IMG/VR virus record: IMGVR_UViG_3300045988_088117
Coordinates: 1 to 43,392 of that record
Length of the DNA stretch: 43,392 nt
Direction: 5' to 3' (one strand)
Source: a virus
This document shows, in pieces, positions 4,205-43,392 of the stretch (position 1 is the stretch's first letter; every line of letters starts with the position of its first letter). Below the pieces are notes generated by a model. That model was given only the letters and a program-made list of their open reading frames with translations. It did no database searches and had not been told where the DNA came from. The position numbers and the translations under genes were made by a program.

Positions 4205-4282
4205 ATGACCATCACGAGGGGCAAGCGCCCTGGACACCACACAACAGACCGCCGCCGACAGGCGGCAGAAAGGAACGATATT

Positions 4283-4495
4283 ATGACTACTACTACCACC
4301 ACCCGCAAGCCCGCCAACCTCAACCGCATCATCAAGAGCGTAGAGAGCCGCGGCGAATACATGACCCGCCGCTACTACTACACCAACCGCGACATGTGCG
4401 ACCGCCGGGAGATTGTCCGCATCGAGCGCGACGCCCTCGGCACCACCCGCACGCTTGACCGTGACAGCTGGCAGATCGTCGCCGTCATCCGGTAA
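4283..4495 (+). CDS. Hypothetical small protein (70 aa)
   Basis: ATG at 4283 follows a GAAAGGA RBS. The listed start at 4205 lies upstream of the predicted transcription start site. No recognisable domain. Confidence 0.55.
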   Translation: MTTTTTTRKPANLNRIIKSVESRGEYMTRRYYYTNRDMCDRREIVRIERDALGTTRTLDRDSWQIVAVIR

Positions 4496-4605
4496 CGAGC
4501 CGAAACGCCCTTCCGGGCGTCCGCATGGGATTGCCTCCATGCGCTGATGATGGCAGGCTAAGACAACCGCGACAGCCTCCCAACCGAGGGGAAAGGAAAA
4601 TAACT

Positions 4606-5516: not shown

Positions 5517-5556
5517 ACTTGTATAGCCCCCCAGCAGGGGCGGAAAGGACAAAACC

Positions 5557-5838
5557 ATGAAGAAGCTTAGAATGAAAGATGTCATCACCCGCGAAGGGTA
5601 TGAGTGCCTGACCGCCGAGGAGCGCCATGCGCAGCTCAAGGTTGAGCAAGCCAAGGAGATCAGCGGCCTGCGTCGCTACCCCAGCACTTGCAGCGCCGTG
5701 CTCGACCGCATCCCTGCCGAGTGGTGGAGCAAGTACAGCGCCGAGCACATCGGCGAGGTGATGCAGCTGCTCAAGGCCGCCTATGATGACGGGCGGCAGT
5801 ACCCGGATCGCGACGAGTGGCAGCGGCGCGAGGATTAA
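5557..5838 (+). CDS. Hypothetical small protein (93 aa)
   Basis: RBS is GGAAAGGA. Composition is protein-like. Confidence 0.7.
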   Translation: MKKLRMKDVITREGYECLTAEERHAQLKVEQAKEISGLRRYPSTCSAVLDRIPAEWWSKYSAEHIGEVMQLLKAAYDDGRQYPDRDEWQRRED

Positions 5839-5943
5839 AAAAATAAAAGCAGGAGATTTCTCTCCTGCTTCCCCTTTGTTTAGTAGCTTTGCTATTAAAC
5901 AGGCTAATATTTCAACCCCACACGGAAGCGTTGCTTCCGAGAC
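5838..5943 (-). ncRNA. Unit A: predicted ~105-nt RNA starting with a CRISPR-repeat-like element, then a second hairpin and a terminator
   Basis: Minus-strand repeat at 5943..5909 is GTCTCGGAAGCAACGCTTCCGTGTGGGGTTGAAAT. A second hairpin lies at 5878-5900. The terminator stem GCAGGAGA/TCTCCTGC (5849-5868) is followed by a T-run on the minus strand. Confidence 0.55.
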
Positions 5944-5949
5944 GACTGT

Positions 5950-5979
5950 ATTATACAGTAATCAATGCGGATTTGTCAA
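5950..5979 (-). promoter_or_regulatory. Consensus promoter of unit A
   Basis: On the minus strand: TTGACA (5979..5974), 18 nt spacer, TATAAT (5955..5950). The repeat starts 6 nt after the -10. Confidence 0.7.
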
Positions 5980-5992
5980 GGAGAAAAAAACC

Positions 5993-6361
5993 ATGAAGTA
6001 CTACATAGAGATCACCGTGCGCCGTGAAGACCCCCTGACGCACTACACAAGCGAGGATTTTATCGACCTCAGTTGCCCATGGGTGGATATCGACCCCGCG
6101 CTCATGTCTGACGATTGGGCGAAAGCCCGCCTCATCAGCGAGTATTGGTCAGACTTTGACCCTGCAACACCCGCCCCGCGTATGTGGTGGGAAACCGACA
6201 GCGGGCGCAGCGAGAACAACGATTATTATACATTGGTCGTATATACGGCTACTGATGACGGCGAGCCGGATTTTGACAACATGGTTGCAGGCGCGTCTAT
6301 GGATGCTTGGGGCATCTGGGAAGAAAAAAAGAAAGCGCCAACAAATAAAATCTCCGAATAA
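5993..6361 (+). CDS. Hypothetical acidic protein (122 aa)
   Basis: ATG at 5993 follows AAGGAGAAA. The gene is flanked by ncRNA units A and B. Confidence 0.7.
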   Translation: MKYYIEITVRREDPLTHYTSEDFIDLSCPWVDIDPALMSDDWAKARLISEYWSDFDPATPAPRMWWETDSGRSENNDYYTLVVYTATDDGEPDFDNMVAGASMDAWGIWEEKKKAPTNKISE

Positions 6362-6463
6362 AAAAAGAGCGGGAGAAAAATTCTCTCGCTCTTTTTTGCT
6401 CACTAGCAAAGCTATCGAACAATACAATATTTCAATCCCACACGGAAGCATTGCTTCCGAGAC
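6360..6463 (-). ncRNA. Unit B: predicted ~104-nt RNA starting with a CRISPR-repeat-like element
   Basis: Minus-strand repeat at 6463..6429 is GTCTCGGAAGCAATGCTTCCGTGTGGGATTGAAAT. The terminator hairpin at 6366-6392 has A/T runs on both sides. Confidence 0.55.
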
Positions 6464-6469
6464 AGTTTG

Positions 6470-6498
6470 ATTATACACCATCTGTATACGGCTGTCAA
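6470..6498 (-). promoter_or_regulatory. Consensus promoter of unit B
   Basis: On the minus strand: TTGACA (6498..6493), 17 nt spacer, TATAAT (6475..6470). The repeat starts 6 nt after the -10. Confidence 0.75.
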
Positions 6499-6499
6499 C

Positions 6500-6604
6500 A
6501 AAAAAACGAGAGGAAAATTTTCCCCTCGTTTTTTGTCTTCCGACGGATGTCGGTTGAACAATTTAATGTTTCAATCCCTCATGGAGGTTAGTTTCCTCCA
6601 AGAC
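6500..6604 (-). ncRNA. Unit C: predicted ~105-nt RNA with a divergent CRISPR-repeat-like element
   Basis: Minus-strand repeat at 6604..6568 is GTCTTGGAGGAAACTAACCTCCATGAGGGATTGAAAC. A second hairpin CCGAC/GTCGG lies at 6540-6553. The terminator hairpin at 6506-6529 is followed by a T-run. Confidence 0.55.
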
Positions 6605-6610
6605 ATCTTC

Positions 6611-6639
6611 ATTATACGCTGCATTTTCTCGGATGTCAA
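6611..6639 (-). promoter_or_regulatory. Consensus promoter of unit C
   Basis: On the minus strand: TTGACA (6639..6634), 17 nt spacer, TATAAT (6616..6611). The repeat starts 6 nt after the -10. Confidence 0.75.
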
Positions 6640-13352: not shown

Positions 13353-14062
13353 TCATCCCCTCTCAGTCCAAGCGATTGCAGCGCGAAGGGGTTGTTTGTC
13401 AGCGCTTGCGGCGATTCTCTCGCCGTATTCTCAGGCGGCTTGTCCCTCCAGCTGTACCCCGCCGCCTTTTCCCTGCGCAGAATACCGCCGACGTATCGCC
13501 AGTTCCGGCTTTTTTCCGGCGCGCCTTGCAGCTTCCCGATGGCTTTGAGCAGATTGTCCGCCCCGTGTTCCGCGCGCAGGCTGTCCATGCAATCCTGATC
13601 GGCCAGCGTAGAGGCAGGCAGCCCGACACGCCGAGCCGCCGTTTCCACCTCTGCCCGTTCCTGCCGGATCTCCCGCAGTTCGTCGTCCGTCAGGTCAAAG
13701 GGGGTTTGGGGGTTACTACTATCGTACTCACTCTCTCCCTCTCTCTCTTTCTCACACTCACCCTCTTTCTCTCCCTCTTTCTCCTTGCGCTTTTGTTCCT
13801 GTTTCGTTTCCGTTTCGTTCTCGTTTTGTTCTTCGTTTGTTTTCGTTTTGTTTTTTCGGTTAGACGCTTTGATTCGCCCGCTGTCCAGCGTTGGGCGAAT
13901 CAGCTTAAAGCACGCCGAGCATATACCCGTCAATTCGTTCGGTGTTTGTTCGTCCAGTGCATAGTCCAGTATCGCGAACAAAACCTTCGCCCGTTCCTTC
14001 TCCGGCAGGTCTTTCAGCGCTTCGTAATAGCTTCTGTAAAATGTGAACTGTTCCCGTTTCAT
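13343..14062 (-). CDS. Replication initiator / DnaD-domain protein with a low-complexity linker
   Basis: ATG at 14062 (MKREQFTFYRSYYEALKDLP). The C-terminal RNWRYVGGILRREK resembles a DnaD-like motif. The central linker is E/K/G/N-rich. Confidence 0.55.
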   Translation of the reverse strand: MKREQFTFYRSYYEALKDLPEKERAKVLFAILDYALDEQTPNELTGICSACFKLIRPTLDSGRIKASNRKNKTKTNEEQNENETETKQEQKRKEKEGEKEGECEKEREGESEYDSSNPQTPFDLTDDELREIRQERAEVETAARRVGLPASTLADQDCMDSLRAEHGADNLLKAIGKLQGAPEKSRNWRYVGGILRREKAAGYSWRDKPPENTARESPQALTNNPFALQSLGLRGDECE

Positions 14063-23117: not shown

Positions 23118-24911
23118 TCACTCCTTAACGGCTTTCGCAATGTCAACGGCAAACACGATTTCGCTTGGCACCGCCAGCTCAAATCCCTCGTCCAGTTTAG
23201 GGTAGTGCATTTGCACCGTGCCGCCAGATGCTACTGTGAGCAATTCCAGATCGTCCACCCAAGCAGCAGACAGGTCGATGATTTCCGGGGTATCAAGGGC
23301 TGTCCATACGCCGTTCTGGGTCATACTGCCTACATGGTGGTATGACTTTGCCTCAAAGTCGATGTAATTGTAGGATTCAGCCGTTCCCTGACCGTAGTCC
23401 GGGCACAGCGCCAACATTCCCGTCGGCAGGGCAGTGGTGTGGATAACCTCTCTGCCTGCTCTTTTGCTTACCACGCTGTCAATAGAGGCTACAATCAAAT
23501 CGGCGGTATAGGGTTCGAAATGATGTGCCGTATTGCCCGGCTCAAGCATAATGTCTGATATGGTGGTGACGCTGCCGATAGACACTATTTGGTTGGTATT
23601 TCCGAGCAAAACAAATTCGATTTTTGTAAAATCATCTGAAACATCAATCGTTACTTCTTGTGCATTAGATGTCACAGTAGCCTGCAAAATATTTTTTCCG
23701 TCCTGAGAATAAAATCGCACGATCAACCCGCCCGTGCCAACTATTTCGGCGTGCAGCGTATACGTCCCGGCAAGGCCGTTTATGTCTTTCTTTTGGTAGC
23801 TTTGTCGGTAGGTACCTGAGGACAAAGTCGTTAGCGTATAATTATAATTTCCGTTTTTTGTCACGCTTAATTGGGAAGATGACGCAGGGAAATCATCTGG
23901 AAGCACCTGATATCCTTTGCGGCTCATACCGCCGATCTTGCGAAGCCCTGCATAATCTTTCGTTCCGACGGGGACATCAACCTCGGAGCCACTGCCCACA
24001 ACAGTTTTGCAATCGTAGGTGTACCCCTGCTGCATTTTGATAGCATACCGTGCTGCTGCTTCTGCGCGCTCAGCTCGTTTTTCAGTTTTTTCGAGCTTTC
24101 CGGATAGCGCGATAGCATCTCCTGTTATTTGATTGATTGCTTCTCCCGTAGCTTTCGCGTCCGCCGCCTCGCCCTCCTGGGTCAGCGTCGCGTCGATGAC
24201 GGCATCCTTGCCCGGTTCGCCTTTTGCGCCTTGCGGCCCTTGCGGCCCTACCGCGCCTTCCGTTCCTTGCGGTCCGGTTGCGCCCGTGTCACCCTTGGGA
24301 CCTCGCAGGCTTTCAAGTTGTTCGGGCGTGAAATCGTCAAAGGTAAACGCGTCTCCTTTTGCGCCCGTTTCGCCCTGCGGGCCGGTGTCTCCCTTCTCGC
24401 CCCTGTCGCCCTTGTCTCCTTTTTCGCCCTTGGGTCCCTGCGGGCCAATCGGGCCTGTTTCACCCCTGTCTCCCTTCGGGCCGCGGAAGGATTCCAGCTT
24501 GACCTCCATGCTGCTCACATTTTTGGTCTCACAGGTGCATGCAGGGCATCCGTTTGCTTCAAGCACGACAAAACATCCGGGCGGTTCAGGCGTGATCATT
24601 TCCCGATAACCCGTAATCTTTCCGTTGCTTTCCGTCACGTCCAGTGCAAACCGAATCGCATAGGTATATGCTCTGTGCCTTTTGGAGAGGTTCTCCGTAT
24701 CCGTTCCGGAAAACATGAGCTTACAAACGCCGTCGTCATCCGGCGTGACCGTTTTGTTGATGACGATCCTGCCGTCCGGCATTTCCGCCACCATGAAAAA
24801 CATCCGGTCTTGGCTCGTCGGTACATAGCCTGTTGGCACAATCGCCAACAAGCCCGTATCGCCTCGCGTAATGGTAATTTGGCCTTTCCTCGCATCAAAC
24901 ATAGTCGCCAC
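23118..24911 (-). CDS. Tail fibre / receptor-binding protein with collagen-like G-X-Y repeats
   Basis: 597 aa. An N-terminal domain is paralogous to ORF 26581..26946. G-X-Y runs include GPKGDRGETGPIGPQGPKGEKGDKGDRGEKGDTGPQGETGAKGD. Confidence 0.75.
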   Translation of the reverse strand: MATMFDARKGQITITRGDTGLLAIVPTGYVPTSQDRMFFMVAEMPDGRIVINKTVTPDDDGVCKLMFSGTDTENLSKRHRAYTYAIRFALDVTESNGKITGYREMITPEPPGCFVVLEANGCPACTCETKNVSSMEVKLESFRGPKGDRGETGPIGPQGPKGEKGDKGDRGEKGDTGPQGETGAKGDAFTFDDFTPEQLESLRGPKGDTGATGPQGTEGAVGPQGPQGAKGEPGKDAVIDATLTQEGEAADAKATGEAINQITGDAIALSGKLEKTEKRAERAEAAARYAIKMQQGYTYDCKTVVGSGSEVDVPVGTKDYAGLRKIGGMSRKGYQVLPDDFPASSSQLSVTKNGNYNYTLTTLSSGTYRQSYQKKDINGLAGTYTLHAEIVGTGGLIVRFYSQDGKNILQATVTSNAQEVTIDVSDDFTKIEFVLLGNTNQIVSIGSVTTISDIMLEPGNTAHHFEPYTADLIVASIDSVVSKRAGREVIHTTALPTGMLALCPDYGQGTAESYNYIDFEAKSYHHVGSMTQNGVWTALDTPEIIDLSAAWVDDLELLTVASGGTVQMHYPKLDEGFELAVPSEIVFAVDIAKAVKE

Positions 24912-24912
24912 C

Positions 24913-25068
24913 TCAGCCCATGTTCAGCGCTTCGCGGATGGCTTCTAGGTCGTCGGTCGTCAGTGCGGGATAATCCGCCGCGATATCGGCAAAATCCTCG
25001 CCGTTGGCAATGCGAATTCTAAACGCACGGGTCATAATGCGCAGCTTCAAAGCATTCAAAGTTTTCAT
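24913..25068 (-). CDS. Small XkdX-like protein (51 aa)
   Basis: Hand-translated as MKTLNALKLRIMTRAFRIRIANGEDFADIAADYPALTTDDLEAIREALNMG. RBS is GGAGGA. Confidence 0.4.
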   Translation of the reverse strand: MKTLNALKLRIMTRAFRIRIANGEDFADIAADYPALTTDDLEAIREALNMG

Positions 25069-25073
25069 CTTTT

Positions 25074-25448
25074 TTATCCTCCAATCAAATCAGCCATCAT
25101 CAAAATCAGATCGTCGTTTGCGGATTCCAGCGCGTCCGTGCGCTGCTCCACGTTGTTCACGCGCTCCTCAGTCGTCAGCGGCGGCGCGGGCAATGCGTCA
25201 AAGTCCGCGTCCATCTCGGCCTGTGTCCGCTGCGCAACCAGCCCGTCCACGAGCTTGTAGCGGTACACGCCGCGCTCATCCGTGAGCGGCTTGAGCAGAT
25301 AGTTGTTCTGCGCGTGCCGGTATCGGTCGCCCTCGCCCTCGTCGATAGCCGTCCAGCTGTCGCCGCTCACAAACGCGTCGCTGTTGATCGCCGTCACGCG
25401 CCCAGCATCGTCGGTCTGCACCAGCACTTTGCAGCTCTCTGTGTCCAT
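25074..25448 (-). CDS. Hypothetical fibre-associated protein (124 aa)
   Basis: Listed ORF lying between the fibre genes. Confidence 0.55.
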   Translation of the reverse strand: MDTESCKVLVQTDDAGRVTAINSDAFVSGDSWTAIDEGEGDRYRHAQNNYLLKPLTDERGVYRYKLVDGLVAQRTQAEMDADFDALPAPPLTTEERVNNVEQRTDALESANDDLILMMADLIGG

Positions 25449-25460
25449 GTCATCCCTCCT

Positions 25461-26579
25461 TTACAGGTCGGCAGAAATGTCAATATCTCCCTGCGGCGTA
25501 ATCACGCCCGTGCAGATGCCCGTTACAGATACCGCGCACTTGACGGCGACGCGGTTTGCGTTTGTGTTATGCGCCGTAGCCGTCTCTGTCGTCGTTCCCT
25601 GCGCGCTACCCAGCGTGTAGTAAAACTTCCCCCCGCCTGTTACGGTCGGCGCGATCCGCATCGCCTGAGTCAGCGGAATAAACGCGTAAGCCACGCTGCC
25701 CGTGGCGTACCCGGCGAACGTCTGCGCATTGCCCTTAATCTTCCGATAATATCGCAAACATTCGGCCAGTTCCGCCGCGTATCCCTTCGGCACATACGGC
25801 GGCAGGGTCTCCGCCGTGTATTCGCCCTCGTAGAGCGCCGCCCAGCGGACGACCGCCGCCGTGCCGGTGCTGCCTGTGTCCGGCGAAATGTACACGTTCA
25901 CCACTTCGTCCCCGGTCAGGCCATCCGGCTTTGTCAGCTTCAGCACCAGCGTGCGCTCCGCCGCGTCGCCCTGAAAATACGCCGTGCCAAAATTCGTCGT
26001 GCCGCTGCCGATGTAGACAAACAGTCGGCACGGCACCGGAAAAACGCCGCGTACCGCAAACGTCATCACGTCGGCAAACCGTTTCGCCTCGATCCGCTGC
26101 TGAATGCCCGCCGTCCAGCTCGTCTTGTCCGACACGATTTTCAGCCCGTCTGCCGCCTGTGAAACCGTCGCGCCGTTTGTCCGCATCCAGCGATCCACAG
26201 CATACCCGGTCGCGCCGTGCGCCCCGTTCACGCCCGCCTGCGCAACCGGGTGGACAAAATCGCTGTTGTCCAGCAGGTTGTATACGCACGCGCCCGTGTC
26301 GCCCTTTGCCCCGGTTGCGCCCGTATCGCCCTGTGGCCCCTGCTCGCCCTTCGGCCCTTGCGCTCCCTGTGCCTGTACGCCCGTATCCAGTTCGCCGACA
26401 AACCAGTTGCCGTTCTCGCCGATGTACGGCGACGCGCCGGACGGCCCCGTCAGTTCCGCTTTCTGTTCCGGGGTCAGGTCGTCAAAGGTCAGGTTGAACG
26501 TCTCCTTCGCGCGTTCGATGTGAACGCGCATTGGCGCGCACTGTACGCAGCCCGTGCAGCATCTCTCGTTTTCCTTCAT
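25461..26579 (-). CDS. Tail fibre protein with a collagen-like segment (372 aa)
   Basis: ATG at 26579 follows an AAGGAGGG RBS. Contains GAQGPKGEQGPQGDTGATGAKGDTG. Confidence 0.7.
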   Translation of the reverse strand: MKENERCCTGCVQCAPMRVHIERAKETFNLTFDDLTPEQKAELTGPSGASPYIGENGNWFVGELDTGVQAQGAQGPKGEQGPQGDTGATGAKGDTGACVYNLLDNSDFVHPVAQAGVNGAHGATGYAVDRWMRTNGATVSQAADGLKIVSDKTSWTAGIQQRIEAKRFADVMTFAVRGVFPVPCRLFVYIGSGTTNFGTAYFQGDAAERTLVLKLTKPDGLTGDEVVNVYISPDTGSTGTAAVVRWAALYEGEYTAETLPPYVPKGYAAELAECLRYYRKIKGNAQTFAGYATGSVAYAFIPLTQAMRIAPTVTGGGKFYYTLGSAQGTTTETATAHNTNANRVAVKCAVSVTGICTGVITPQGDIDISADL

Positions 26580-26580
26580 T

Positions 26581-26946
26581 TCATCCCTCCTTGAGTGCAT
26601 CCACAATGTCCATTCTCCCCGGCGCGCACGGCGTAATCACCTCGCGGCAGGCCGTCACCTTTCCCTTGGCGTCCACCGCCGCTTCCAGGGCGAACCGAAT
26701 GTCCCAGACATAGCTTCCGGGTCTGAGCCGCGCCGTGTCCGCGCTGACAAACTCGATCTTCACGCGCCCATCCGCCTCCGGCACAATCGTCTTTTCCATC
26801 ACCGCGCGCCGCCCCGGCTTCTCCCGCACCGTGAAAACCGCCCGGTCTTCCGCCGTCGGCACATAGTCTCCTTCGTCCGGAATCACCGCCAGCAGCCCGG
26901 TGTCGCCCGCCGTCATCATGATCTGCATCCCGTTTACGCGAAACAC
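26581..26946 (-). CDS. Fibre N-terminal-domain paralog (121 aa)
   Basis: The GTG start has an AGGAGG RBS. MFRVNGMQIMMTAGDTGLLAVIP aligns with MFDARKGQITITRGDTGLLAIVP of the 597-aa fibre. Confidence 0.6.
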   Translation of the reverse strand: MFRVNGMQIMMTAGDTGLLAVIPDEGDYVPTAEDRAVFTVREKPGRRAVMEKTIVPEADGRVKIEFVSADTARLRPGSYVWDIRFALEAAVDAKGKVTACREVITPCAPGRMDIVDALKEG

Positions 26947-27800
26947 GCCTTCATCCTCCTTGTAAAGACCCGCACGCCGTCCCGAATCAGGCCGCCCGCT
27001 TTCACGCCGTTCAGCCAGATTTCCGAGAGCTGCACGCCGTTGAAAAATACCGGCAGCAGGTCGTCCTGTGTCCCGCGCAGAATCACAATGCCGCTTCCGC
27101 CCGCGGCCGCTTCGCCGCCCATGGTCCCTTCTTCATAACCGCCGCCCGGCCCGCCTGCGCCGCCGCCCGTGCTGACCTGTCCGGGGTGGCCGTAGCCGCC
27201 GTCCACGCCGTCCGTGCCGCCCGTGCCGCCGTTGCCTCCGCCGCCTGCGCCGCCCTTCGCGCCGCCGATCCAGGTTCCGCCGCCGCCGCCACCTCCGCCG
27301 CCGTAGGGGCCGAAACCCAGCACATAGCCGCCGTCGCCGCCTTCCGTTGGCGACGCACCGACCTCGCTGCCGCCCCGGCCGCCTGCACCCGTGCCCGCGC
27401 CCGGCGTGCCGCTGTCCTTCCAGCCCATTTTTCCCGCGCCTTTTCCGCCTGCCGCCGAAACGCCGAGGGCAGAGGTCGTCCCGCCGTCGTTGCCCGCCGC
27501 CCATGCGGCAGGCGCTGCGCCGCCCGCGCCAACCGTGACGGCGTAACCCTTTTTCGCCTCTATGGCGGCTTTGCCGCTGGCCAGATAGCCGCCGCCTCCG
27601 CCGCTTCCACCCGCCGGGTTTCCGGCCTGCCGAACGCAGGCGCTCGACCCGCCGCCGCCCACGCAGCCCACGTCTACGCCCGCTTTCGCATACTCAAAGG
27701 TCAGCGTGCCGGAGGTCGTCAGAAAGATGTACCAGTAGGTGTCGTCGCTTCCCGTGGAGCATTGCCCCGTGTAGCTGAATTTTGGAATCTTCTTCGCCAT
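26934..27800 (-). CDS. Glycine-rich tail/fibre-associated protein (288 aa)
   Basis: Long GGxGG tracts are flanked by ordinary N- and C-terminal segments. Confidence 0.6.
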   Translation of the reverse strand: MAKKIPKFSYTGQCSTGSDDTYWYIFLTTSGTLTFEYAKAGVDVGCVGGGGSSACVRQAGNPAGGSGGGGGYLASGKAAIEAKKGYAVTVGAGGAAPAAWAAGNDGGTTSALGVSAAGGKGAGKMGWKDSGTPGAGTGAGGRGGSEVGASPTEGGDGGYVLGFGPYGGGGGGGGGTWIGGAKGGAGGGGNGGTGGTDGVDGGYGHPGQVSTGGGAGGPGGGYEEGTMGGEAAAGGSGIVILRGTQDDLLPVFFNGVQLSEIWLNGVKAGGLIRDGVRVFTRRMKACFA

Positions 27801-27812
27801 TCTCTCACCCCG

Positions 27813-28601
27813 TCACGTCGTCGTGATGTAAAGCACGGTGCCGCTCAGGGTAAACGTCACCCCCGCCGGGCCTTTCGGCCCTTGCGGCCCGGTTGCGCCC
27901 GTCGCGCCTTTGTCGCCCTTGTCCCCTTTGTCCCCCTTTTCGCCCTTCGGCCCGCGCTCAAGTCCCAGCGTCAGCACCTTCTTTGTCCCGTCATCGGTCA
28001 GCGTCGCCGTGCTTCCGCTCCCGTAGTTGCGTGTCGCGGCCTGCACCGTCATCTTCGATAGGTGATCTGTCTGCGTGTTCGCCGCCTTCGTCGCCTCCAG
28101 CGCGTTCTCCGCCGCCGCGTTCGTCTCCGAAATCGCCGTGTTCATCTTCGAGAGCGTTAGGTTGATTTCCGCCACCAGCGCGTCCCACGCGTTCCCCTGG
28201 CTCGGCGTGACCTGAGACCCCGGCGCAGGGCGGCTGATCGGGGTGAAACTCCCCTCGTAGCAGGTCTTCGCCCGCACTTCATCCTCCGTCGCGCCGTAGC
28301 TCACATAGACAAAGACCTTGACCGCGCTGCTTCTGGTCAGATACGCGTCCGGAATCTCCGCTTCCCAGCAGCCCGTCTGCGCATCGAAAGCCGCCAGCCG
28401 CGTTTCCGTCTGGCTGTCCCCGATGTAGCCGTATTGCGCCTGCACCGTCACCGCGTCGCCGGCCAGAAATTCGTCCATTTCCGCCAATTCTTCCGGCGTG
28501 GGCAGCCCGTGCATCCGCAGCCGCTGACCCGTGTCGTATTGATAAATCCCGCCGATTGCCGCGCTCTTGTGCGTGGCCTGCTCAAAACTCGCTTCAATCA
28601 T
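27813..28601 (-). CDS. Tail/baseplate-type protein with a C-terminal collagen-like repeat (262 aa)
   Basis: RBS is TAAGGAGGG. Contains GPKGEKGDKGDKGDKGATGATGPQGPKGPAG. Confidence 0.65.
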   Translation of the reverse strand: MIEASFEQATHKSAAIGGIYQYDTGQRLRMHGLPTPEELAEMDEFLAGDAVTVQAQYGYIGDSQTETRLAAFDAQTGCWEAEIPDAYLTRSSAVKVFVYVSYGATEDEVRAKTCYEGSFTPISRPAPGSQVTPSQGNAWDALVAEINLTLSKMNTAISETNAAAENALEATKAANTQTDHLSKMTVQAATRNYGSGSTATLTDDGTKKVLTLGLERGPKGEKGDKGDKGDKGATGATGPQGPKGPAGVTFTLSGTVLYITTT

Positions 28602-28613
28602 CGTAAACCCTCC

Positions 28614-31600
28614 TTACTTTTGCTTTTTGATGGTCGTGCCGCCGTTAAGTGTCTTGAGCATGCCCGTCAACAGGCTTTCACCAGTGACCCATTTTTCCTG
28701 ATATTTTGCAAACTCCTGATTGACCTCCAAAGCCAATTCGCACATTTTGGCTCGGATGCGGCTGCTTTTTTCGTATTTTTCCTCGTCCGTCAAATCCGTG
28801 CGTGCGTTGATGGCTTTGATCGTCTCATACCCTTCGCTGATGGTCTTTTTGGCTTCGTAGATCGTTCCGCCGCTGTGCGTCATATCGTAGGCGACGTCAT
28901 ACGCCTTTTGTGCCTGTCTCGGTGTCAGGTCTCCGCGCAGCATGTTCAGTTCGCGTCCGTTGTCTCCTGCCTTGACCACTGTTGTCAGGAATGTATTGGC
29001 GTTGTAGACCTCGCTGACAACATCATTGCTCTTGAGCGGGTCACTCGTCAGCATCTTTTGGGCGTATGCCGTAAATGCCGTCACAGGGCTGTCGCCGCCC
29101 AGTGTCGGAATGGCAACCTGTCCCGCGAATCCTGTGTATTGCTGTGCCATATATTGCAGCATCATCGGGCTGATCTCCGCGCCAGACAACGAATGAATAA
29201 AGCGAGACAATCTGATGAACGCGTCCGGCGTGTCCTCCGTATACTGCGTTGTCGCGTCCCAGCTCTCCATGTAGCTGGGCACGATGCGGCTGCCGTACCA
29301 GTTTTTGTTGGTCTGCGTCGCAATTATCGGGTCAAAAATCGTGCTTCCGACAGGATTAAGGCTATCTACCATCGTCGCAAACGTCGTCGCCATGTCGATG
29401 GTGAATTCGTCCCCCTTGCCGGATTCCAGCGCGTTGAACACCATCGCGTGCGTAAAGTAGTCAAGGGGATTCTGGTCAATGGGGATACGGATGAGCGGCG
29501 CGTCTCCGAATACGTCCGGCGCAAAATTGGGAATGAAGAAATGCCCATTTTTCAGGTCGTCGCTCAAAAACGCAAATTGTTCTTTGTCCTCGTCGTCAAG
29601 GAATTTGGCTCTCAGTCCGGCGCATACCGCCGTAAACAGTCCTGTGTTGACAACAGAGCGCATGACGCGACTGACCACTTGCCCGCGCTCCTGCGCTGTA
29701 AACTGCCGTCCGGTGCGGTATACGCCTTGCAAACTCGCATTCATAAACGGAACGACGTTGCGGATGCCGCGTCCGATGCTGCTTGCGCCCTTTCTGCCAA
29801 AATCGACCGTGCTTTCTTGGGAGGCGCGGTAGGCTTCCGCTCGTCCCTCAGCCGTCGTCAGATCGTGCTTACCATAGAGATATTCGGCTACGCGGGTCGT
29901 TTTCTCGATAAACTCGTTCGGCTTTTGCAGGGTTGCGTATTCCCAGAGTTTTTTTCCTGCCCATTTCGCTGTACCCGCAAGCGTACTCGTATCATAGTTT
30001 TTGAAGTATTCCATGTTCAGCGGCGTCCATTTGCCGTCACTTGTGTGGAATAGCCTTTCCGTTGTATACAACGTGTGCCGCAGGTCTTTAATGCCCTTTT
30101 GGGTTGTATCAATGCGCCCGTCGTTTCCGCCCAGCGCGTCATAGCCCTTTACCGCCTCATCTCCGCTTGCGATTCTGTATGCGGTCATCAGCCATTTCGC
30201 CGCGCCGTCCAGATAACTCTTTGCCCATGTGCCGTAGTTGACACCGTTCTGGAAGTCTCTCGCGAAGTTGCGCAAACCAAACACCGAGTTCGCGCCCGTC
30301 GTCAGGAACGTCATGGCGCGTGTGCCGCGTCCGATAAAGTCCGTAACCTGCTTTCCTCCGTCCGGCGTGTTCGCCATCATCCTGAAAAACGGCTCGTTGA
30401 GGATTTCGATTTTGCTCGTGCTTCCGTCGTCATTCCATACCGTGATGACGTTCTGCCCGTCCGCGCTGCTCTCATCGGCATTGGCACGAATCAAATCACC
30501 GAATTCCCCGTTCAGCGGGTCAAATTGCACCGTCTTATCCGGCTTTGCATCGGTTTCGATTTTGTGCGCGATTTCACCGAGTCCCTCGTGGGTGTCCAAC
30601 AGCATTTCAAGCTTTTGCGCCGCCTGATTAGTCATGTCCTGCCGCACAATCCGCCCGACCATCTCAAGCATGCTGTCCATCGGGTTCAGGATCAGCTCGG
30701 TGCTTCCCTTCGCCTGACGAACGGAGAACCCGGCTTTTTTTGCCTGCTCAAGCGAAAAATCGCCGTCCTTGATGCGATATGTAGGCGCATAATAAGGGTA
30801 GATGCTTTGAAAATATTTCCATCCCGCTTCATCCAGTCTGCCGCTTGATACAAGATACTCGTGCGTAAAGGCGTTCCACGTTTTGAGCAGACTATCAACC
30901 GTCTTTGCGTATTCCGGATGCGTTTTATCCTTTTCCGCGATAAACGCACGCCGTTCCGCGTTTGACGCAAACCCGTCGTCAAATACAGGCTTGTTTTGCT
31001 TGTCCCTGTCGATACTGTCCTTGACAAGCCAATACAGCTCAAAATCCTTGTAATCCTTGCCTTTCAGCCCGCCGTCCTTGATTGCGTCCGCAAAGCTGCC
31101 GCCGATAATCGTGCTGCCGTCTCTTGCTACAAGCCCGTCGCCGATGATATACAGCGCACGCTCGTCCGCTTTGTTCCGCAGCAGCACCGCGTCTCGCAGG
31201 TTCTCGGAAAACGCCACGGTGCTTTCACCAGTCTCCGCCCTGATTTTCGCATTGATCAGTTCCGCCGGGGCGGACGAATCGACAAACTCATAGGTGAGCC
31301 GCATCATCTTTTCCTTGAGCGTTTCCTTTTCCTTCGCGTTTGTGCGGTCTACGACCATGCTTTGCAGCCGATCCTGTGTGCTCTGATTCAGCCATTTGCG
31401 GATGTCGTTTTTGTAAAGGTCGAACGCCTTGTCATATCCGCTCTGCCGCATCTGGTAATCAAACGTGTCGGTAAACGCATCACCCGCGAATCGTCTGCCC
31501 TGCTCGTCGCTCAGCACACGCCGCCAGACGTATTCCGCCATCGCCTCTCCCGCCATCTCCGCATCCGTGTAGTTTTTCGCCCACGATGCGTTTTCGGCTT

Positions 31601-34600
31601 TCAGCGCGGCGACCATTTCCGGCGTGCCGGCAAGTCCGAGCTTTTCGCTCAGGGCGTGACCGATCTCATGGATGACCACATCCACCCGCGACGCGCTCCT
31701 TGCGTCAACGCCCGCGTAACCCACACGGCTTTGGTAATATCCGCTCGCCCCATCCGGCACACGGCTGTCTCCCAGCTTGATTCCAACGCCAAGAGCTTTG
31801 GCGAATCGCTTTGTCGCGGAGTAGATGTTTTCGCCGTAATTGCTTCCGGTCGGCTTGCTCTTCCCTTCCGCCTGCTCAACCTCAACCCCGCGGTACGTCC
31901 GTTTCTGTTCGCCTTCTGCGCTCTTGCCGACATCGCCCTCCATGACGCCCTTTGCCGCCCGGCGGATCTGCGCCCGATCCTGAGGTTTCTCAACCGGGGT
32001 TCTCATGTCGCGGTAGGCCTTTCGCCTCGCCATCATCGCATTCATGATGTCTTCTTCCGGATGCAGGCTGGCTTCGTTCATGTACCCGCCGCTTTGCTGT
32101 GCCAGATCGACATAAAAATGTCCGTCAAGCGGCGTCGCGCCGCGCGCGTTCTCGGTCAGGTTCATGGCGTATGCCCGGTTGACCTGCGGAAGCGACTTAA
32201 ACCCGGTCATATGGAGGATTTCACTCTTCTGAGCGGGATTGACATAGACCTTTTTCGTTCTCAAATCGTTGGCGACAGGGGTCAGCGCGTCATATGTCCT
32301 TTGAGCGTTCACCTTGTCCATGTTTTGGGTCAGATAGGCGTTCATATCAGCCGCCGCGTTGGCCTCGTCTCTGGCTTTGGCGTTATCCGTTTCAAGGCTC
32401 AGCTCTCCAAGCTGATTCATAACGTTGTCGATTTCAGATGCAAACACGTTCAGTGCGTCGTCGCTCAATCCAGAAAGACCCTCGCTTGCCTGTTCCTGCA
32501 CGGCATCGATCCGCTTTTGACTGACGGGCTTTCCGTCTTTCAACGCCTGCGCAAGTTCCTGTGCCGCCCGTCCGGCCTTGACAATCTCGTCCATCTGCCG
32601 AATCTCCGGCGCATACTGCTCCTCAAACGTCGTGTCCGCCACAACCTGTCCGGGTCTTCCGCCGTCCGCAGCGCGCGCTTCTTCCGTCTGCACGGTTGCG
32701 TCGTTCATATCATGTGTTCCGGTGAGCTGAACCTCCGCTTCCGGATTCAGATAGTTCTGCGTTTGCTGGCTCGTCTTCTGCTGTTCATTCCGTCCGGTTT
32801 CGCCCGGATAGAGTTCCTCTTCCAGCGCCCAGTCGCTTCCGCTTTGCTGATAAATCCTTTCTTTGGCCTGCGCCAGTTTGATCTGGTTTTCAATCGCGGC
32901 CTTTGTGTCCGCGTCAAGCCCCAGTTCTTCGCTTTGGCTGAGCGCCTGTTCAAGAGAGATGCGTGTCGCTTTGGCTTCTTCAAGCCCCGGCTCTGCAATC
33001 TCGTTTCTCTTTCTTCTCAGCTCGTGCAGTCTCTCGTCGATGCCCTGCATAACGCTTTCGTCATATCCCTGCGCTTCCGCTTCGGCATAGCTGGCGTTCA
33101 TCGTTTTGATTTCGGCGTCAATGTCGGCGATTTGCGTCATCGTCTCCATTTCCGCCACCCATCTGTCCGTGTTTTGCTGGTTTTCTTCCTGACTGATCTG
33201 CGCGCCGCGCGTTTTCGCTTCGTTCAGTCCTTTTTCATAGGCCTCCCTGGCCGCCTGCCGGTGTTTTTCCTCTGTCTCTCTGTATTCGTTCGCCGTTTTC
33301 TGGTTTTCGCTCATGCGCACGCGCGCCGCCTGCATCTCTTTGATCTTTTCCAAATCTCCGTTCATGACGGCATCTGCATACGATTCAAACTGCGTCTTAG
33401 CCGCGTCCGCCGCCTGCTGAGCGGCTTCCGCTTTCGTCTGCGCGGTTTGCTGCATGTCGGTCTGTTTGTTTCCTTCTTCAAAGTTCTGCGCGCCCACGCC
33501 TGCCATGGCCGCCGCAACCGTATTCTGCGCGTCCTGCGCCTGCTGTGCGGCCTCGTTGACGGCCTGCGCAACCTCCGGTTTTTCAAGTTCCTGCGCGAGG
33601 TTTTCCGTGACTTTCGCGATGTTCTCAACCGTCACGTCCGCCTCTCCGTTCAGCATCTTTTCGCTGATCGTGATGCAGGGCGGCGTATATCCCGGCAATT
33701 TGCGCCGAATGGCAAGCCCCATATGGCCGGACAGGCTGAAAATAATGCTGCCCGCCGCGCCGCCGACAAAGCTGTTCGCGCCGTCGGCCAGCATTTGCGC
33801 AGGGTCAAGGCTCGTCAGTCCGCCGAGAACGTCGGAAAACTGCGGTTTCTGTCCGTTGGTGATCTTCTGCGCCACCGGATACATGGCCGCGTTGTACAAG
33901 TCGGTCAGAAGGCTTTCTTCAACCTCTTCCTTGCCTTCGCTCACGGCCGTTTTCGCAAGGTCTTTGGCGTAAAGTCTGGCCTTTCCCCAAAATGTCGCCA
34001 CTTTGGAAGCGTCCAGCCCGGCCAGCTCCATTTCAAGCAGACTGCGCCCGCCATACAGATTTCCCTCGTTGACGGCCTCGCCTTTGTTGACCACCGTGCT
34101 GATGACGGCGGGTCCAACCGCCAGCGCCGCAGAAACCTGTTTGCTCAGGCCGTTTTTCCGATTTTCTTCAAAGCTTTCATTCCATGTCGTCGTACCGTAA
34201 GCCAGCGCGGACGAAGCCAGCCCGCCAGCGCCCAGCGCGCCTGCCGCTCCGGCTGTCGCCATGCCGGCCGCGCTGTATCCGGCGCTCCACGCATAATTGA
34301 AAGCTTTCTGTTCAAACGCGTTGCCCAGCGCCGCGAAGTCCTGGGCGCTCCGCTGAATGTTATCCAGGGCGCTTGTGAAAGCGCGATATCCGTTTCCCAG
34401 CCAGCCCGCGTCAATCTTGTAGCCCACATCGTAAATGTCTTTTGCCCGTGCGATATCGGCCTTGAGCGCCGCGCTCTGCTCTTCGCTCAAAAGGCCGCTG
34501 TCCGCGTATTGCGTGAGCTGTTCACGGTAGATGGCGCGCCCGTTCACGCCGTATTCGACGTTGTAGCTGTTCATGATTTCGTTGCGGTTCGCTTCATAGG

Positions 34601-42551: not shown

Positions 42552-43392
42552 TCATTCTTCCTGAGAATCGTTGTCTTGAAGCAGCCCGCTGTAATCCGCG
42601 TTTTGCCGCTTCTGTTCAATCTCGGCGGGCGTTGCGTCCGCCTTTCGGTATTCGTTGAGCACCGCCTGCATGCCCTGATTCTGCGCCATCGCCTGTTCAA
42701 GCTGCTGCTGAAGCTGGGCAATCATGGCTTGCGTCTGGCTGTTCGCCTGTACCATTTTGAGCACGCTTGCTTTCGTGCGGTATCCTTCCATCAGGCTGAT
42801 GACCGATTCCGGCGGAAGCGCCTGTCCGGCCTGCCCGCAAATCTGCGATACCTGCATCAAGAATTCGTTGTCCGCCTGAATTTGCAGTGGGTTGTTCTTC
42901 TGCACCTGGACGCGCACCGTGTACGCGGGCTTGGGCAGCTTCCCTCCGTTCCTGCTTGGGGCAATCAGCTCGACTATCCGGTCTTTCATGTTGCCGCTGC
43001 TGTCCCAGCCGCCGACAATCCTAATTTTCCTTTCCGCGTCCAGATAGTCCGAGAGCACCCAGAGAATCTGCTCGACCATCTTGCGGAAAGCGTTTTTGAA
43101 TCGCTCCGTATGCAGGCGCGTCGTCTTGCCTCCCGCTTCCTGCAAAGCCTGAATCGCGCTCGCCGCCGTCACGCCCAAACCGCCTTCACCGCGCGAAAAC
43201 TGGTTCTGTCCGCTGTCCTGCTTCATGGTGTTGACCAGATAATCAAGCGTCGTGAATACCTGCCCGTTAATCGGATTGGCCTGCACCGTCTGCATCGCCT
43301 CGCGCACGTCGTTTCCTTCCCACTCGATGATGGTCTTGCGCATGTCGGCCACATCGTTTGGGTTTACGCCGCTCCCTTTGCGGATAAAGTGA
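42552..43392 (-). CDS. Portal protein, C-terminal part (same gene as 1..1117; 43274..43392 duplicates 1..119)
   Basis: The listed ORF starts MADMRKTIIEWEGND at a GTG, but the frame stays open upstream to the window end. Position after terL and a combined size near 612 aa are typical of a portal. Confidence 0.85.
   Translation of the reverse strand, partial: HFIRKGSGVNPNDVADMRKTIIEWEGNDVREAMQTVQANPINGQVFTTLDYLVNTMKQDSGQNQFSRGEGGLGVTAASAIQALQEAGGKTTRLHTERFKNAFRKMVEQILWVLSDYLDAERKIRIVGGWDSSGNMKDRIVELIAPSRNGGKLPKPAYTVRVQVQKNNPLQIQADNEFLMQVSQICGQAGQALPPESVISLMEGYRTKASVLKMVQANSQTQAMIAQLQQQLEQAMAQNQGMQAVLNEYRKADATPAEIEQKRQNADYSGLLQDNDSQEE
43274..43392. repeat. Terminal direct repeat, copy 2
   Basis: Exact copy of positions 1..119. 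Confidence 0.95.

Follow-up and report, generated by a model that had tools for sequence, protein, structure and literature searches.

What do three short predicted minus-strand transcription units, each with a CRISPR-repeat-like element directly behind a perfect promoter, do for the phage that carries them? They lie in IMG/VR record IMGVR_UViG_3300045988_088117, which we analysed from position 1 to 43,392; this whole stretch of 43,392 nt is the window. A sequence-only reading had taken the units, named A, B and C here, for candidate RNA anti-CRISPRs (Racrs) of the solitary repeat unit (SRU) kind. We find that each unit encodes a structured RNA and not a protein, and that the three units belong by architecture to the published SRU class, whose members are candidate Racrs or Cracrs. 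In the broadest terms, they are probably CRISPR-repeat mimics that engage the Cas proteins of the host.

Three minus-strand cassettes of one design

The three cassettes share a single order of parts: promoter, 6 nt, repeat-like element, linker, a second hairpin (hairpin 2) and an intrinsic terminator. A promoter scan of the minus strand returned the full consensus, 12/12 bases, in all three, with spacers of 17, 17 and 18 nt between TTGACA and TATAAT in units C, B and A. When both strands of the whole window were searched with a regular expression for perfect TTGACA-N16-18-TATAAT, only these three promoters were found, where about 0.016 are expected by chance. GTCT begins exactly 6 nt past the -10 box in 3/3 units, and the elements, 35-37 nt long, read 5943..5909 (A), 6463..6429 (B) and 6604..6568 (C).

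In unit C, the promoter (TTGACA-17-TATAAT, 6611..6639) is followed at this distance by the 37-nt element GTCTTGGAGGAAACTAACCTCCATGAGGGATTGAAAC (6568..6604), made up of a first hairpin (hairpin 1) and a 12-nt tail. Folding and alignment then place the linker ATTAAA and hairpin 2 (TTGTTCAACCGAC-ATCC-GTCGGAAGACAA) at 6533..6567, and the terminator, with its core stem at 6527..6510 and a T-run, occupies 6502..6532. Unit B has its promoter (TTGACA-17-TATAAT) at 6470..6498 and the 35-nt element GTCTCGGAAGCAATGCTTCCGTGTGGGATTGAAAT at 6429..6463; the linker ATTGTAT and hairpin 2 (TGTTCGATAGC-TTT-GCTAGTGAGCA) follow at 6397..6428, likewise from folding and alignment, and the terminator (6358..6396) borders on the stop codon of a convergent gene on the plus strand, 5993..6361. 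Unit A is built in the same way, from the promoter (TTGACA-18-TATAAT, 5950..5979) through the 35-nt element GTCTCGGAAGCAACGCTTCCGTGTGGGGTTGAAAT (5909..5943) and, again by folding and alignment, the linker ATTAGCCT with hairpin 2 (GTTTAATAGC-AAA-GCTACTAAAC; 5878..5908), to a terminator (5838..5877, stem 5872..5845) directly against the stop codon of 5557..5838, likewise a convergent gene on the plus strand. For A and C, a simple scan as well as folding called the terminator; that of B is visible by folding only.

The sequence-only reading had described this layout, including the perfect promoters, the 6-nt interval and the linker, second hairpin and terminator of each unit, and all of these features were found where it had put them. 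It had also argued that the layout excludes a normal CRISPR array, and this holds: the elements are single copies with private promoters and terminators, and their starts are 520 bp (A to B) and 139 bp (B to C) apart. The 104 nt between the B and C elements contain a terminator and a promoter, and no full or partial repeat lies within 100 bp of any of the three, the distance by which an SRU counts as solitary. Each element is also intergenic, located on a virus, free of any cas association and directly downstream of a promoter, as SRUs are by definition; among the open reading frames (ORFs) scanned in the window there are no cas genes.

A structured RNA family in human-gut phages

The RNAs predicted from the three units are ~103-107 nt long. 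Each folds as hairpin 1, a single-stranded conserved stretch, hairpin 2 and the terminator hairpin, and the fold Z-scores of the three RNAs range from -4.4 to -5.8 against dinucleotide shuffles.

In pattern scans, the element was found only in human-gut phage contigs. The relatives comprise four IMG/VR contigs from one metagenome, seven ENA/metagenome contigs, and contigs L137 and L138; all are metagenomic or 'Caudoviricetes sp.' records. Six unit types (A-F) occur across the window and these relatives. The perfect promoter and the 6-nt spacing are present in every copy listed with upstream sequence (16/16 copies in the related contigs, and type F), and so is the terminator in every copy listed among the related contigs, type F being listed separately. 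L137 and L138 are relatives of the window phage that align to window positions 5546..5997; at the position of unit A they carry type F (GTCGCGGGGGCGTCGCTCCCGTGTGGGGTTGAAAT), and behind it come the linker, hairpin 2 and terminator of the family. The start of type F is the canonical GTCGC, and G4.U22 takes the place of the T.T mismatch.

The number of units per contig varies from 1 to 3, and L021, a near-identical phage, carries no unit behind the same regulator gene. The neighbours of the units differ between phages as well, being a regulator, an AP2-like gene, an XRE gene or a gene for a 93-aa protein. The cassettes are accessory elements. A profile search of the window and the related loci gave no further diverged copies, and neither the region nor a 53-nt core had more than chance-level BLAST matches among INPHARED phages or PLSDB plasmids. 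The repeated 'GGGATTGAAACATT' sites of contig L023 were considered as SRUs and rejected, as they are palindromic operator/promoter regions of protein genes.

We counted base pairs in an alignment of nine distinct sequences (A4) that was registered by hand to the proposed structure, so the counts are biased toward it. In hairpin 1, 100% of cells are paired over 8 pairs, and 3 pairs are changed on both sides; these double-sided changes include Y5-R26, extending the stem down to C3-G28, and the GT at the start of the element is unpaired. In hairpin 2, 85% of cells are paired over 12 pairs, with 4 pairs changed on both sides. Controls in which the register was slid gave 33-45% paired cells and hardly any double changes. 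Neither the tail (W)GGGRTTGAAAY nor the ATT that comes next nor the TGTT varies; variation falls in the stems, the loops and three bases of the linker. The invariant tail is predicted to be single-stranded.

Element lengths of 35, 37 and 38 nt among the relatives, together with the compensatory stem changes, exclude a conserved protein or reading frame across the element, the outcome that would have counted against the sequence-only reading. That reading saw no credible ORF inside the RNAs. This is borne out in that no conserved protein is encoded there, but ORFs do overlap the units, with TTG or GTG starts or as antisense shadows of gene 5993..6361.

A second pairing is available to all unit types. 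The tail (RUUGAA.YA) is complementary to a stretch (UG.UUYRR.U) formed by the linker together with the 5' side of hairpin 2; 97% of cells are paired, and the variation is all wobble-compatible (A4 columns 33-56; for example, 6415-6437 in unit B). This fold and hairpin 2 are mutually exclusive, and in four of five types the fold with hairpin 2 is the more stable one, by 2.5-8 kcal/mol. A different pairing, in which GAACAATCCGAGAC in the 5' untranslated region (UTR) of the related contig L001 complements the 5' end and linker of the RNA, was rejected because it is absent from the window UTR and is not significant after counting the possible 'collapsed' forms. At the Rfam gathering score, no unit matched, the sole match in the window being Hammerhead_II elsewhere, and at E<=10 nothing meaningful appeared for the units; a CRISPR-DR22 match to hairpin 2 of unit A (14.9 bits, E 4.9) was dismissed as noise.

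Could the cassettes act mainly in cis? Every unit sits at a meeting point of minus- and plus-strand transcription; A and B have terminators that run up against plus-strand stop codons, and A is placed antisense between a pair of genes that are joined in one operon in L001. Acting as strong convergent promoters with terminators that work in both directions, the units might insulate the interleaved plus-strand genes or regulate them by antisense transcription. We consider this very improbable, since it leaves the invariant tail, the covarying hairpins and the fixed 6-nt spacing unexplained, and since the units adjoin different genes in different phages.

Likeness to type I-C repeats and possible modes of action

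Type I-C repeats are processed by Cas5c, with an 11-nt 5' handle, and are usually 32-33 nt long. The units share with them the GTC start, a stem-loop from nt 3 and a single-stranded 3' tail ending in GG(G)RTTGAAAY, and would likewise be transcribed in the sense of the CRISPR RNA (crRNA). The last 11 nt of units B and C (GGGATTGAAAT/C) equal the last 11 nt of I-C-like repeats in four phage mini-arrays (L030, L041, L050 and L057), whose repeats start with GTCGC and have a 7-bp stem and a 4-nt loop. Across units, the tail varies at A/G (-8) and T/C (-1), the same positions as in published I-C SRUs. The units differ from type I-C repeats in their length of 35-38 nt, in one extra tail base, in their GTCTY start instead of GTCGC (type F excepted), and in being solitary, outside an array and with no cas genes nearby. 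In the examined part of the published tables, I-C SRUs that start with GTCTC do occur, such as GTCTCCCTCCACCCGGAGGGAGTGGATTGAAAT (PMC10651486), and this repeat also forms arrays of 23-26 repeats.

The promoter-repeat arrangement extends beyond this family. We scanned viral contigs for TATAAT, 6 bases, GTC, 17-27 bases and GGRTTGAAAY, and the pattern also matched ~12 distinct solitary elements of canonical I-C type on viral contigs that are unrelated, among them GTCAGCCCCTCGTGGGCTGTGGATTGAAAT, GTCGTACCTGCAAAGGTACGTGGATTGAAAC and GTCGCCCCGGAAACGGGGTGTTGGATTGAAAC. In these elements the stem starts at nt 3 and the tail has 11-12 nt; there are 35-nt variants with a 9-bp stem (L082, L125, L145) and one with a 12-nt tail (L135). 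Beyond what the scan required, at least 8 of the ~12 have a -35 hexamer that matches at 5/6 positions or more, at a distance of 16-18 nt, and in several a T-run or a terminator hairpin can be recognised 50-70 nt downstream. A strong private promoter, a repeat at the transcription start and a terminator after it are a recurrent phage design. It is this shared -10/6 nt/repeat architecture, together with the GTCGC start of type F, that assigns the units to the SRU class. The analysis thus establishes the anatomy, conservation and RNA structure of the units, and a cassette architecture that they have in common with the canonical I-C-type solitary repeats.

SRUs lie immediately downstream of promoters, and more than 2,000 have been published, I-C being a common type among them (Camara-Wilpert et al., Nature 2023, PMC10651486). 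Two members are directly relevant: RacrIC1 inhibits a I-C system, and inhibition by RacrIF1 is dose dependent and relies on its strong native promoter (PMC10651486). Like such elements, each unit is a single intergenic repeat-like sequence in a phage, with no cas gene adjoining, placed directly downstream of a strong promoter, oriented in crRNA sense and situated among small accessory genes. RacrIC1 is co-transcribed with acrIC5 (PMC10651486), whereas here there are three copies per genome, each with a private promoter and terminator. The kind of element is therefore already known, SRUs having been described in 2023 (PMC10651486); what is new is a diverged I-C-like family with three independent copies per genome, a conserved hairpin 2 and a linker complementary to the tail.

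Given this likeness, the best explanation that we can offer is that the units are repeat-like solitary elements acting as RNA decoys against a host CRISPR system, a proposal with about an even chance of being right. We infer every step after transcription, namely Cas binding, cleavage and inhibition of immunity. Each unit would be a gene complete in itself, from whose sigma-70-type promoter host RNA polymerase makes a non-coding RNA of ~105 nt, and transcription would begin at the first base of a solitary type I-C-like repeat copy. Through hairpin 1 and the single-stranded tail GG(G)RUUGAAAY, host Cas5c and Cas7 may take the RNA for pre-crRNA; the predicted binder and cutter is Cas5c or Cascade, either of the host or of a I-C system with a GGGAUUGAAAU handle. 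Cas5c could cut 11-12 nt from the 3' end of the repeat, and Cas7 could load on the downstream part. No useful guide would result, with a conserved hairpin at the 'spacer' position and the terminator hairpin where the hairpin of the next repeat would stand. Cas proteins would then be tied up in non-targeting or aberrant complexes that compete with real crRNAs. Three copies behind perfect promoters could supply the high dose that competition needs, and they fit a decoy because competition of the RacrIF1 type is dose dependent. That the mode of action is pure sequestration, as for Racrs, seems to us evenly balanced. The cognate system would be an array of GTC(T/G)Y...CCRTGTGGGRTTGAAAY repeats adjoining cas5c-cas8c-cas7.

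Several results weigh against this decoy explanation. Identity to a panel of 55 typed repeats, drawn from the tables of the SRU paper and from arrays seen in this analysis, peaks at 0.71-0.78, and the best subtype is I-C for units A and B and a 37-nt III/I-B-like class for C and D. SRUFinder sets a minimum of 90% for both identity and coverage against a CRISPR repeat whose subtype is known; no array repeat of the panel reaches 90% identity to the units, and the 55 repeats of the panel compare with 17,823 in the full database. The examined part of the published table lists no TGGGATTGAAA among its SRUs. The tail after the stem has 12 nt, against 11 in the canonical form, and the stem is longer than in known SRUs and has a T.T mismatch. 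The linker (ATT...YTGTTY) and hairpin 2 that follow the repeat are conserved, which a pure decoy does not obviously need. No CRISPR-DR family of Rfam matches hairpin 1 at E<=10. Searches of the neighbouring proteins against PHROG, Pfam and PDB sequences found no known Acr or Aca family nearby, and these proteins were dropped as candidates for known anti-CRISPRs.

The search for a cognate array adds to this side. The sequence-only reading expected a similar repeat in an array of a host or related genome, and our scans with exact degenerate patterns found none. Scanning 185,579 GTDB species genomes for GTCTNGG-N11-19-CCNTGNGGGRTTGAAAY gave chance overlaps only; a metagenome collection, in which an 11-nt tail was also allowed, gave only phage cassettes; and IMG/VR, scanned for arrays with GTC...GGGRTTGAAAY repeats, gave only other repeat classes. 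A peptide query made of six-frame repeat translations, aimed at spurious ORFs across arrays, matched nothing. The GTDB and metagenome scans required GTCT, and a cognate repeat that starts with GTCGC or differs at a fixed base would escape them. Arrays in Chloroflexaceae and Saprospiraceae, with a 37-nt repeat ending in CCCCATGGGGGATTGAAAC, share ~20 nt with unit C, but they were rejected as cognate: the hairpin abuts ATTGAAAC, a different layout, and the scan match arose from spacer ends that completed the pattern. A literature string search for the tail sequence returned only an unrelated 30-nt repeat in Carboxydothermus. Likeness of hairpin 1 or 2 to Cas12a, Cas13d or Cas9-scaffold RNAs was considered and dropped, as the defining stems and positions do not fit.

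Taken together, the resemblance to type I-C repeats that the sequence-only reading had seen survives in part, in the layout, the last 11 nt and the crRNA sense, but not as close identity, and the subtype is ambiguous. Its Racr proposal is likewise upheld for the architecture, through the ~12 canonical cassettes and type F, and falls short in that no cognate array was found and identity stays below 90%.

The conserved linker and second hairpin admit another use within the mimic family. The units could be 'poisoned crRNAs', in which the longer tail, the spacer-position hairpin and the tail-pairing linker jointly trap Cas5c/Cas7 or switch between a masked and an exposed state, in a family that has drifted more than 20% from any array repeat and so escapes homology-based SRU searches. 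We hold this combined proposal tentatively and think it doubtful.

The post-repeat stretch also bears on whether the units are regulatory RNAs of the Cracr type. CracrVA1, of type V-A, comes from an uncultured phage of gut Ruminococcus and has a spacer-like part that matches the cas12a promoter beside a protospacer-adjacent motif (Liu et al., bioRxiv 10.1101/2024.10.29.618823). The units have the same layout (bioRxiv 10.1101/2024.10.29.618823), in which one repeat-like sequence is followed first by a spacer-like stretch and then by a rho-independent terminator; their carrier too is an uncultured gut phage, and several different versions may occur in one element. On this account, the RNA would load onto host Cas proteins, the 34-40 nt stretch or its first ~12 nt (ATTnnnYTGTTY) would serve as a partial guide, Cascade would repress a host cas promoter or the promoter of a CRISPR-guarding toxin, and the three units would cover three host variants. 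I-C Cracr arrays do exist, co-encoded Cracrs target different variants of one system type, and three distinct versions are present in this phage. The distance of 34-40 nt from repeat to terminator hairpin is spacer-like, and ATT and TGTT after the repeat are conserved while the neighbouring bases vary. However, would-be seed positions 4-6 differ in every unit type, and the first 16 nt after the repeat match nothing in the window phage or its relatives, which leaves no self or competitor target among them. The spacer-like part is a conserved hairpin, unlike that of CracrVA1, and it is kept by compensatory changes that a guide would not need; in the type I Cracrs described to date, repeat-like sequences stand on both flanks (bioRxiv 10.1101/2024.10.29.618823), where the units have one. 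As a whole, this account strikes us as possible but rather weakly placed.

If no Cas protein is involved, the units could form an unrelated family of trans-acting phage small RNAs, with the conserved stretch as an mRNA-pairing seed or protein site and the CRISPR likeness as coincidence. A 5' hairpin, an unstructured conserved core, a second hairpin and a terminator are indeed the generic anatomy of a base-pairing small RNA, and the lack of an array in the GTDB and metagenome scans, identity of at most 0.78 to typed repeats and the lack of an Rfam match are all in keeping with it. Coincidence would have to account at once for GTC at the transcription start, the stem from nt 3, the 11-nt tail identity and the crRNA sense, for the same -10-to-repeat spacing in ~12 canonical I-C-type solitary repeats, and for the canonical GTCGC of type F. 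This alternative, which the sequence-only reading had itself raised, is now unlikely.

The other alternative raised there was single-repeat guide RNAs that use host Cas proteins and take the 31-38 nt after the repeat as a spacer. In a version aimed at conflict between mobile elements, the units would be single-repeat mini-CRISPR guides, with the 31-40 nt after the repeat as a true spacer against competing phages or plasmids. The length is spacer-like, and phage-borne I-C-like mini-arrays exist, including one (L030) with a spacer that matches its own contig. Yet the 'spacers' of the six unit types are mutually homologous and structured, which is not what independent acquisitions would give, and there is no second repeat and no protospacer among the related phages compared. 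We give this version hardly any credence. I-C-like repeats on phages without cas genes (L030, L114 and L116) resemble the units in that respect, but those mini-arrays and orphan arrays hold at least two repeats flanking true spacers, whereas the units have one repeat each, private promoters and terminators, and homologous 'spacers'.

Other phage-borne repeats were met along the way. L030 (3771-3803 and 4157-4256) has a two-repeat I-C-like mini-array (GTCGCCTTCCTCACGGAAGGCGGGGATTGAAAT) whose spacer matches sequence ~400 bp upstream on that contig. Very large gut phage contigs (L087-L107; for example IMGVR_UViG_3300023499_000220, 346 kb) carry many dispersed mini-arrays with 2-4 copies of a 34-nt I-C-labelled repeat (GTTGCAACCC....GGGTTGCGTTWGATTGAAAT), spaced ~62-76 nt, mostly 68-70, at 10 or more sites in one genome. 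L114 (from 7848 onward) and L116 have 23-26 copies of the I-C-type repeat GTCTCCCTCC....GGAGGGAGTGGATTGAAAT. The array of L114 follows the endolysin gene of a phage-like contig, with a collagen-like protein and a GH25/M15 endolysin upstream, and there is no cas gene in the 7.8 kb upstream of it.

If the units are active decoys, they would be compact, strongly expressed RNA inhibitors of type I-C-like CRISPR in human-gut Clostridia-type hosts, where I-C SRUs are common and hardly any have been characterised functionally. Identity-based SRU searches (at least 90%) would probably miss this family, and repeat mimics are thus likely to be undercounted. The motif '-10 box, 6 nt, GTC...GGATTGAAAY' offers a search handle that recovers canonical cassettes without a repeat database, and the conserved hairpin 2 and tail-pairing linker may help to separate the decoy, guide and switch models.

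The phage and its accessory island

The window has an exact 119-nt terminal direct repeat (1-119 and 43274-43392), an assembly overlap that gives a circular genome of about 43,273 bp. It encodes a terminase, a major head protein/capsid, an integrase, an anti-repressor, a holin and an endolysin; because of these genes, we read it as a temperate phage.

The units are interspersed with two small accessory genes of the plus strand: 5557..5838, for the 93-aa protein, and 5993..6361, for an acidic protein of 122 aa, the latter gene being conserved. In relatives, homologues of the two form one operon behind a perfect promoter, followed by a helix-turn-helix (HTH_3) gene. The arrangement is suggestive of an acr-aca operon. 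Neither protein had a sequence match in PHROG, Pfam or PDB, and an AlphaFold model of the 122-aa protein (pLDDT 82) had no significant fold match in PDB.

A second conserved perfect-promoter cassette, TTGACAAGTAAATTAAAAWGATGTATAAT with a shared purine-rich 5' UTR, drives small accessory operons in relatives, including those with homologues of the 93-aa and 122-aa proteins. Its sites are L001 8610-8640 and 10800-10830 (minus strand), L018 3072 and 5536, and L020 105 and 2569. In L110 (1-651), a relative of the 93-aa gene adjoins host mnmG (GidA) and tRNA-Pro(GGG); this contig is likely a prophage junction and a handle for identifying the host.

The same plus-strand accessory island contains a type II hammerhead ribozyme at 4498-4562 (Rfam RF02276), which scores 52 bits where the gathering score is 37. 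The ribozyme comes after the stop of ORF 4205..4495 and before the next gene (ATG at about 4606), and there it would cut a polycistronic transcript. Elsewhere in the window (24200-28000 and 28614-37373, minus strand), tail-fibre-like genes contain long stretches of collagen-like repeats with a 9-nt period, and there is a single 2,919-aa ORF; a CT-rich low-complexity repeat (ACTCACYCTCTYTCTC...) lies in the early region at 13726-13783.

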